A program made the position numbers and the translations under genes. From positions 33,952 through 97,951 of the forward strand of contig JAVKIH010000005.1 of the NCBI GenBank assembly GCA_031459625.1: a DNA stretch of 64,000 bases, read 5' to 3'. Below are positions 10,815 to 14,419 of the stretch, in pieces. Source of the stretch: Candidatus Geohabitans tengchongensis (lineage in GTDB: Bacteria > Sysuimicrobiota > Sysuimicrobiia > Sysuimicrobiales > Humicultoraceae). Each line of letters starts with the position of its first letter. Within the stretch, counting starts at the first letter, position 1. A model generated the notes under the pieces. It had not been told where the DNA came from. It was given only the letters and a program-made list of their open reading frames with translations, and did no database searches.

Positions 10815-11547
10815 CGATGCTGCGCCGAAGATTCAACGGGGCTCAAGCCACGTACCGAAGCTGCGGGTCTCGCGTCCGCTGGGACGCGGGGCGGTAGGGG
10901 AGCGTTCCGGTGTAGGTTGAAGGCGGACCGGGAGGACCGCTGGACGACCCGGAAGTGCGAATGCCGGCATGAGTAGCGAAAAGGCAGGTGAGAATCCTGC
11001 CCGCCGTAAGGCCAAGGGTTCTTACGGAAGGTTCGTCCGCGTAAGGTTAGGCGGGACCTAAGGCGAGGCCGACAGGCGTAGCCGATGGACAGCCGGTCGA
11101 CATTCCGGCCCCGCTCGTCAGCCGTCATGAGCCAAGGGGGGACGCAGGAGGGTAGGCCTACCGGGGGCTGGTCGTCCCGGGCCAAGCGGGTAGGCGGAGG
11201 CCCCAGGCAAATCCGGGGCCTCATCCAACGCCGAGACGCGAGCGCGAGCTGGGTTGCATGCCCGGCGAAGTGGCTCAGCCCACACTGCCAAGAAAAGCCT
11301 CGTGGCCAGGCTGGCGGGCGCCCGTACCGCAAACCGACACAGGTGGCCAGGCACTCAACGTGCCAAGGCGCGCGAGAGAACCCTCGTCAAGGAACTCGGC
11401 AAAATGACCCCGTAACTTCGGGACAAGGGGTGCCTCGGTAGGGTGAGGTGCGTCACGCACCGAGCCCGAGGAGGTCGCAGAGAATAGGCTCAGCCGACTG
11501 TTTAACAAAAACACAGGTCTCTGCGAAGCCGTAAGGCGACGTATAGG

Positions 11548-11583
<36 letters not shown>

Positions 11584-11655
11584 CGGGTTAGTCCGGGTTC
11601 GCCCGGGCGAAGCCCTGAACCAAAGCCCCGGTGAACGGCGGCGGTAACTATAACC

Positions 11656-12399
<744 letters not shown>

Positions 12400-12678
12400 A
12401 AGTTCCGACCTGCACGAATGGCGTAACGAGCTGAGCGCTGTCTCGACGAGGGACTCGGCGAAGTTGTGAAGCCCGTGAAGACACGGGCCACCCGCGGCTG
12501 GACGGAAAGACCCCGTGGAGCTTTACTGCAGCTTGTCATTGGATGTGGTCTTACCGTGTAGAGGATAGGTGGGAGGCGGAGAAGCCGGGGCGCCAGCCTC
12601 GGTGGAGCCACCCTTGGAATACCACCCTCGGCAAGGTTACGTCCTAACCTGGGCCCTCAGCGGGTCTGGGGACAGTGG

Positions 12679-12715
<37 letters not shown>

Positions 12716-12871
12716 CGGTAACGGAGGCGCCCAAAGGTCCCCTCAGCACGGTTGGAAACCGTGCGGCGAGTGCAAGGGCATAAGGGGGCTTGACTGCGAG
12801 GCCTACAAGCCGAGCAGGGGCGAAAGCCGGGCCTAGTGATCCTACGGCGGCAAGTGGAAGCGCCGTGGCTT

Positions 12872-12905
<34 letters not shown>

Positions 12906-12980
12906 ATAGGGCCCAAGAGTCCACATCGACGGCCCTGTTTGGCACCTCGATGTCGGCTCATCTCATCCTGGGGCTGTAGT

Positions 12981-13014
<34 letters not shown>

Positions 13015-13051
13015 AGGTACGTGAGCTGGGTTCAGAACGTCGTGAGACAGT

Positions 13052-13793
13052 AACCTGGACCGTTGCTGTCTATAAATCTGGCTATATGCTGGAAAGCCTG
13101 GGGGATCCCACGCTACCCATCCTGCAAACCCGTTGAGGATGTGCCGATAGGTAGGGATGGGTGACAATGCGATGGGTGCAGGTAACCAGCAGGGAAGGCC
13201 AGATGAGGGGATCAGCCACTACATCGCAGGTTTTGTCGACGGGGAAGGTTCGTTCCACGTGGCGGTGCAACGTCATCCCACCACCCGGTGGCGATGGCAG
13301 ATCGTGCCCGAGTTCCGGGTTTCCCAGAACGACGGTAATCAGCACGTGCTGGAGTTGATCCAGAGCGTGTTGGGCTGCGGGCACATCAAGCGGAACCACG
13401 GGAAGAGCCTGCGAGACAGAACCTGGGTGTTGGTGGTAAGACATCGCTCCGACCTGATCGGGAAGGTGATCCCGTTCTTCGAGCGGTATCGCCTGCACAC
13501 GACGAAGCGTCATGATTTCGAGCGGTTCGCGGCTGTCGTCCGGGCTGTGGCGGTGGGGCAACATCGTCACCCCGCAGGACTCCGCGAGTTGCTGCGCGTG
13601 GCCTTCGCGATGAATCAGGGTGGAGCTCGGCGACGGCTGTCGCTGGAGACGGTCCTTGCTCATCTGGAACCCTCAGAGACTGTACGCCAGACACCTCGCA
13701 CGAGGTGAAGATACAGTCCGAGCTTTCAGGCGACTGAAAGAGGCAGGCAGAAATGACCTGCCCCCTCCCCTTCCAGGAGGAGTAACAACACTG
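13052..13793 (+). mobile_element. Group I intron at 23S position L2604 (E. coli numbering), 742 nt, IB-like core
   Basis: Removal restores GTGAGACAGT|TCGGTCCCTATC; the IGS ggaccg..gctgtc pairs with both exons; P atgctggaaa, Q aaccagcagg, R tcagagactgtacg, S aagatacagtcc; terminal G. Confidence 0.93.
13157..13708 (+). CDS. Single-motif LAGLIDADG homing endonuclease (intact) in intron L2604
   Basis: [46 protein letters not shown]; start codon uncertain (13157 or 13172). Confidence 0.92.
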
Positions 13794-13925
13794 TCGGTCC
13801 CTATCCACCGCGGGCGCAGGAGACTTGAGGGGAGCTGCTCCTAGTACGAGAGGACCGGAGTGGACGGACCTCTGGTGTACCGGTTGTCCTGCCAAGGGCA
13901 CGCGCCGGGTAGCCATGTCCGGACG

Positions 13926-13958
<33 letters not shown>

Positions 13959-14301
13959 CACCCCAAGACGAGGTCTCCCACCGGGTCAACCGGGTAAGCC
14001 CCCTGGGAGATGACCAGGTTGATAGGCCGGGGGTGTAAGCGCTGAGAGGCGTTGAGCCTACCGGTACTAATCGGGCGAGGGCTTGAGCCCGTCTTAGGGG
14101 CGGCTGTACAGAGCCTGCCAGGTGCTGTCCCGGGATCGCCGGGGCTGTGATCGGAACGCCGAGTGCGTGAGTCCGCCCCGCGATCTTGGGTAGGTGTGTC
14201 CCGTCGTTGGGTGTCGCGTGCGCCTAAGCCCCCGCCGGACCTGCCGCGACACCCGACGCGGGGCCGCTTCCCTATGCCGATGTCAGGGACACCGGTCGCA
14301 T

Positions 14302-14419
14302 TCCCGGTGGCGATGCCGGAGGGGCCACACCCGTTCCCATTCCGAACACGGTCGTTAAGCCCTCCAGGGCCGATGGTACTGCGGTGGCAACGCCGTGGGA
14401 GAGTAGGTCGCTGCCGGGA
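14302..14419 (+). rRNA. rrf: 5S ribosomal RNA
   Basis: CACCCGTTCCCATTCCGAACACGG, GCCGATGGTACT, GGGAGAGTAGG; terminal helix cccggtggcga/tcgctgccggg. Confidence 0.98.

Follow-up and report, generated by a model that had tools for sequence, protein, structure and literature searches.

A Group I Intron with an Intact LAGLIDADG Endonuclease Gene after U2604 of the 23S rRNA of Candidatus Geohabitans tengchongensis: Another Member of a Widespread Family

The 23S rRNA gene of Candidatus Geohabitans tengchongensis contains a 742-nt insertion that itself carries an open reading frame (ORF). Is this insertion a group I intron that would splice, would its protein still support homing, and is the site new among bacteria? 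We addressed these questions in a 64,000-nt stretch of contig JAVKIH010000005.1 (the window), in which all features given below lie on the forward (+) strand.

Host gene and insertion site

The host 23S rRNA gene (9562..14086) contains two introns, one after U1951 and one after U2604. It is present as a single copy in the 2.76-Mb assembly (73% G+C), and the window holds one rRNA operon. The intron after U2604 (13052..13793, 60% G+C) is preceded by a U and has G13793 as its last base; its junction is fixed with no sliding possible, the 5′ exon running to U13051 and the 3′ exon starting at 13794. Comparison with E. coli K-12 rrlB, in which the 16 bases 5′ of the insertion have U2604 as their last base and the following 12 are those of the 3′ exon in the window, places the insertion directly after U2604 and before U2605 in E. 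coli numbering, two bases past A2602, just where a sequence-only reading of this DNA had put it. That reading had also given positions 2604 and 2605 as pseudouridines in E. coli, which is confirmed by the available text of PMC3919597, where RluF and RluB make these modifications and where both positions sit in a stem-loop of the peptidyl-transferase center with A2602 bulged.

The neighboring intron after U1951 (11686..12399, 714 nt) is of group I type and has a frameshifted LAGLIDADG gene, with its N-terminal Pfam half at 11898-12134 and its C-terminal half, which extends to 12369, in a different frame. The frameshift may be due to decay or to an assembly error. Between the 16S gene (2319-3863) and the 23S-5S genes (9562-14419) lie ∼5.7 kb that include long ORFs, so the operon is apparently unlinked.

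Ribozyme core and the gene within it

A core can be drawn with P1, P10, P3, P4, P5/P5a/P5b, P6/P6a, P7, P8, and P9-P9.2; P2 is absent. P1 (13045..13071) joins exon 13045-13051 to the internal guide 13065-13071 through 7 bp, and its last pair, U13051.G13065, puts U2604.G at the 5′ splice site. This U.G is retained in 46/46 homologues, where 319/322 P1 cells are paired; the columns are almost invariant, which leaves P1 without a covariation signal. The 5′ strand of P10 (13057..13062) forms six Watson-Crick pairs with 3′ exon 13795-13800. The 5′ strand of P3 (13077..13082) is 100% paired with 13686-13691, and 4/6 of its pairs are compensatory. The P4-P5 domain (13087..13191, fold z −3.1) comprises P4 (13087-92/13186-91), P5 (13096-100/13179-83), P5a (13107-13/13169-76, with 7/7 pairs compensatory), P5b (13114-21/13156-63), and an A-rich bulge (13164-68), and the Q element (13184-93) falls inside the ORF. 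P6 (13192-94/13670-72) and P6a (13199-207/13659-67) close the ORF-bearing loop (13192..13672), after which R (13673-84), the 3′ strand of P3, P8 (13692-98/13701-07), and S (13708-19) occupy 13673..13719. Within P7 (13676-82/13714-19), the pair G13678-C13718, at the established guanosine-binding position, is G-C in 46/46 homologues. The 3′ end holds P9 (13723-29/13734-40), P9.1 (13742-47/13757-62), and P9.2 (13764-68/13776-80), together spanning 13723..13780.

The Rfam model RF00028 matches the 3′ part alone, at 27.8 bits (E 1.8e-4) and under the 50-bit gathering score. A partial match is expected for a core interrupted by an ORF in P6, and given the low score we base the ribozyme call on covariation. 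We aligned 46 of 68 complete homologues and scored 56 pairs, named from the window; the 22 introns set aside comprised broken copies, near-duplicates, and a number of divergent introns like those of CPR bacteria (Patescibacteria) with long P1 loops. Paired cells reach 97.3% as compared with 85.1% in shuffles, and both-side changes occur in 34/56 pairs as compared with 21; for either measure, 0/500 shuffles are as high. Pairing stands at 100% in P3, P4, and P6 and 99.3% in P7, with compensatory changes in each of these helices. Structures slid along the alignment are 31-37% paired, in a control that favors the structure drawn from one row. For P10, exon positions +3 to +5 are pairable in 44/68 homologues against 8.3 expected, and a cruder family-wide test of the longest helix gives a weak signal (4.1 bp vs 3.7 in shuffles). 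The terminal G of the homologues was a selection criterion and hence is no test of the intron end. On this covariation evidence the insertion is a real group I intron with a complete core, and the clean P1/P10 pairing after U2604 seen in the sequence-only reading is borne out. We infer an IB4-like subgroup from the lack of P2, the extended P5 domain, and an IC1-like P7, a class assignment to be read with the point that the absence of P2 is also compatible with IC2 and IA1 in the available part of PMC1995217.

ORF 13157-13708 is uninterrupted, codes for 183 aa from ATG 13157 or 178 aa from ATG 13172 (13172..13708), and gives a single PF00961 match (E 9.8e-22); together with the Q and R coordinates, this confirms the intact single-motif LAGLIDADG ORF overlapping Q and R that had been read from the letters. 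At E ≤ 1e-20, 794 of 1125 candidates are relatives of the protein, the closest of them being 73% identical to it. A single-sequence fold was of no use (pLDDT 40) and was replaced by an alignment-based AlphaFold2 model (pLDDT 87), which adopts the α-β-β-α-β-β-α LAGLIDADG fold. Its top structural match is I-TnaI (PDB 5gkk; E 9.4e-15, rmsd 1.7 Å, TM 0.76/0.91, 36% identity). Residues E25, Q52, and K112 (numbered from 13172), presumably the equivalents of the I-CreI catalytic residues, are invariant in 50/50 aligned proteins, and dN/dS is 0.14-0.22 against six relatives. By these measures the endonuclease gene is intact and under purifying selection.

I-TnaI, I-Vdi141I (3e54), I-CeuI (2ex5), and I-ShaI share the fold and motif of the window protein; identity to these enzymes is low, and its DNA specificity is therefore expected to differ. 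By the family rule the protein is likely a homodimer. I-ShaI, from CPR site 23IS7, cleaves its own insertion site and cross-links as a dimer, according to the available text of PMC11270868. The target does not have outstanding two-fold symmetry: the best score, 4/9 matches, is reached at 9/17 centers, and with nine centers sharing it the cut center cannot be predicted from symmetry. Thermostability is plausible, in view of one hot-spring RNA run that holds 0.63 of the words (and may contain DNA) and a 16S gene of 62% G+C. Among the 24 runs listed, another holds 0.22, and the other 22 have small word shares that are no evidence. A search for reverse gyrase as a sign of thermophily found none over the cutoff and one C-terminal piece near a contig start.

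The central part of the ORF occupies the P6 loop; its 5′ and 3′ ends extend into P5a/P5/P4/P6 and P6/P7/P3/P8, respectively, and the stop is at the P8/S border. The true start is probably ATG 13172 and not 13157, judging from conservation and predicted pairing: the former is retained in 7/7 ORF-bearing introns of the host's order, and an in-frame start at the 13157 position occurs in 2/7 (the window and L126); pairing with the 16S tail is −10.1 kcal/mol upstream of 13172 and −3.8 for 13157. The likely ribosome-binding site (13159-64) and the ATG (13172-74), which together span 13159..13174, are predicted to be paired in P5b/P5a in the folded ribozyme, and most of the binding site and of the two start codons is predicted to be paired at 37-70 °C. 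Such overlap is usual in the family, as Q is in frame in 30/33 intact ORFs and the stop lies beyond the start of R in 29/33, the stops falling anywhere between 16 nt upstream and 147 nt downstream of that point. Start codons located 12-15 nt upstream of Q are overrepresented in ORF-bearing introns (24/33 vs 9/27, Fisher p 0.004), but we do not use this as a signal, given that kin are non-independent and that the ORF-less L129 retains the ATG as part of P5a. In two introns from the host's family (L124:1645-2402 and L125:1641-2398), the ORF crosses the entire 3′ intron half and reaches its stop codon 27 nt into the 3′ exon, so that the full protein could come only from unspliced precursor.

The arrangement has parallels. 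Thermotoga 23S group I introns, treated by Nesbo and Doolittle in 2003, are reportedly a comparable system. The Synechococcus L1917 and L1931 introns, as presented in the available part of PMC1995217, share the complex P5, the IC1-like P7, the lack of P2, and a single-motif endonuclease, and the L1917 ORF likewise spans P6 through P7, P3, and P8. The window intron differs from them in site and target, and its ORF also starts in P5a, upstream of Q. With the "core creep" of Edgell et al. 2011 (PMC3073962, as far as its accessible text goes), the window family shares ORF ends in core helices, a variable 3′ end, and a likely sequestered binding site; the difference is that the overlap in 2604 introns is family-wide.

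Distribution of introns at site 2604

Does the site itself set this intron apart? The sequence-only reading had thought 2604 a rarely or never reported bacterial site, and this does not hold. In the available text of PMC11270868 (Tsurumaki et al. 2024), 2604 is one of six positions in CPR 23S genes that are rich in LAGLIDADG_1, listed as 1917, 1931, 1952, 2593, 2604, and 2657 (23IS6-8 and 12-14). The order of that list makes 2604 the site 23IS13, which the available text describes as unreported earlier in known bacteria and which is labeled in a figure of the supplement. A genome scan for the 5′ exon followed by a non-T base likewise speaks against novelty, with an estimated ∼520 filled-site stretches in GTDB genomes; many introns at 2604 were what the sequence-only reading had itself named as removing novelty. 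The literature that we searched, with most subscription journals outside its scope, held no report of 2604 introns outside CPR, and that literature and the structures searched held no solved or assayed endonuclease for the site. The string "2604" is absent from the main text of PMC6125680 and PMC3984707, and PMC4853749 uses a numbering other than the E. coli 2604 style. I-MG11, a thermostable meganuclease of 2026, was considered and set aside, its 23S target site being different in the available text of PMC13748971.

From 15/64 parts of the GTDB scan we retrieved 120 loci, and 111 of these are real 2604 introns by guide and core motifs. The carriers, tallied by hand from record titles in which labels of metagenome-assembled genomes can err, are 47 Actinomycetota, 26 CPR, 12 Gammaproteobacteria/Pseudomonadota, 10 Omnitrophota, 5 Armatimonadota, and 11 others, most carriers thus bearing a non-CPR label. 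Ten records titled "uncultured Gammaproteobacteria" (L006, L008, L025, L032, L042, L060, L071, L078, L087, and L101) have CPR-like introns and exons, and these titles may be wrong. The scan pattern is blind to genes with 2593 filled and to introns that start with T. One of the latter is L126:1629-2374, whose first five bases repeat those with which the 3′ exon begins and mimic an empty junction; non-T scans miss it for this reason. A metagenome scan gave an estimated ∼1200 stretches, and 75/120 retrieved loci were real and 45 due to chance as judged by eye from the printout. Mutual exclusion of 2593 and 2604 introns was ruled out, as both sites are filled in 5/75 of these loci (L172, L219, L222, L245, and L262), with an 11-nt exon in between. 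Splice-site-to-guide extensions are long (∼55-140 nt where measured) in L008, L030, L078, L087, L111, and L069, and several of these P1 loops share a T-rich motif.

The window intron belongs to the CPR 23IS13 (2604) family, as judged by position, core homology, and its LAGLIDADG_1 ORF. The window protein is 41-48% identical to same-site proteins in six CPR-labeled records; 11/12 same-site proteins outscore all upstream-site proteins (31-41%), the exception being L071, and a Doudnabacteria record aligns with the window intron in the core. The 23IS13 introns of PMC11270868, in its available text, share with it the position, the group I class, the LAGLIDADG_1 cargo, and the mix of ORF-bearing and ORF-less members. 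They differ in having CPR hosts. The host of the window is non-CPR, its closest named RecA relatives being labeled Armatimonadota or Ca. Segetimicrobium, which points to the CSP1-3/Sysuimicrobiota group. The available text of PMC11270868 reports no test of a 23IS13 enzyme. The feature is thus another member of a published, widespread intron family, and its novelty is refuted.

Within the family, occupancy and cargo both vary. The set of 68 complete introns (60 from the GTDB scan, the window, and seven relatives, with loci of variant 3′ exon or too little flank dropped) includes 33 with an intact ORF, 5 with a broken one, 29 that are ORF-less, and one long intron without the motif. In the host's class, 11/94 genomes are filled (12 matches, one of them chance) and 24/94 are empty, the region being unassembled or the exon different in the rest, and filled and empty alleles coexist in five genera. 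Family f5 of the host's order is filled in 0/12 genomes. All five of its genomes checked (L274-L278, corresponding to G057, G045, G060, G051, and G048) carry G at 2604 in place of the U needed for the 5′ splice site, and in four of them C is visible at 2590; G048 apparently has an insertion at 2593. The earlier description of the target as near-universally conserved was an overstatement, with these five genomes coming from the same order.

These data bear on the role that the protein now plays. It could be that the intron splices and that the protein has lost homing, acting now mainly as a maturase or splicing helper or persisting as a vertically inherited passenger. In the endonuclease tree (33 rows), grouping follows host phylum, the seven proteins of the host's order form a single clade (100/97), and these rows, which include none from CPR, show no sign of recent cross-phylum transfer; intron identity to family members is ∼75%, as against 91-96% for exons, which fits long residence; and maturase activity is documented for some LAGLIDADG proteins in the available text of PMC11270868. 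However, the residues of active-site type are invariant, filled and empty alleles are found together within genera, and the ORF-less introns, 29/68 of the set, have kept their core, so the protein is dispensable for splicing in the family. We consider the loss of homing improbable. We infer that the element has long been present in the host's order, cycling through gain, ORF decay, and loss.

Predicted splicing, homing and translation

That the insertion is excised without ligation, like an RNase III intervening sequence, or is retained in the rRNA is less probable still. Simkania, said to have an unspliced 23S group I intron on record, would be the precedent for retention. The 2604 site, however, lies in the stem-loop of the peptidyl-transferase center in a single-copy 23S gene, and the intron has retained P1, P7, P10, and its terminal G. 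Intervening sequences, moreover, sit at other, variable sites in the available text of PMC11270868. An assembly or binning artefact, to which a 47-contig assembly and the proneness of rRNA regions to misassembly might point, is already refuted by independent genomes with a homologous intron, which fills the identical junction in 7/29 relatives' loci and occurs on records of chromosome length, among them OY969921.1, OZ252240.1, and CP070684.1.

We therefore favor, with a probability of about 0.88, a group I intron predicted to self-splice from the 23S precursor and likely to home through its intact LAGLIDADG endonuclease. This reading is supported by its position, its boundaries, the compensatory core, the intact gene under selection, the LAGLIDADG fold, and polymorphic occupancy. 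By the group I mechanism, the internal guide and the exon would form P1 with U2604.G, and a guanosine bound in P7 would attack the 5′ splice site; P10 and the terminal G would then position the 3′ exon for ligation. The two transesterifications would leave ligated exons and restore the 2587-2607 stem-loop, which in a one-operon genome would make splicing essential, and splicing would come before pseudouridylation of 2604 and 2605. As in other members of its protein family, the endonuclease would dimerize and cleave an intron-less allele near the junction, and repair by gene conversion would copy the intron in. Since the binding site and start codon are placed in P5b/P5a, translation would need an unfolded ribozyme, likely after excision.

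A broader proposal joins four parts: that 2604 introns are common outside CPR, in Actinomycetota, Omnitrophota, and lineages labeled Armatimonadota, that their spread is gated by C2590-G2604, that the enzyme has a new specificity, and that the start buried in P5 allows protein only from unfolded or excised intron. Taken as a whole, we give it even odds. If true, it would widen the known range of a site described from CPR to include soil Actinomycetota as well as further phyla, with consequences for 23S annotation and primer design, and it would offer a possibly heat-tolerant meganuclease of candidate new specificity. The overall importance is modest, this being a further copy of a catalogued and widespread element; an ORF that overlaps the ribozyme core within an rRNA transcript nevertheless makes a tidy case for studying translation.
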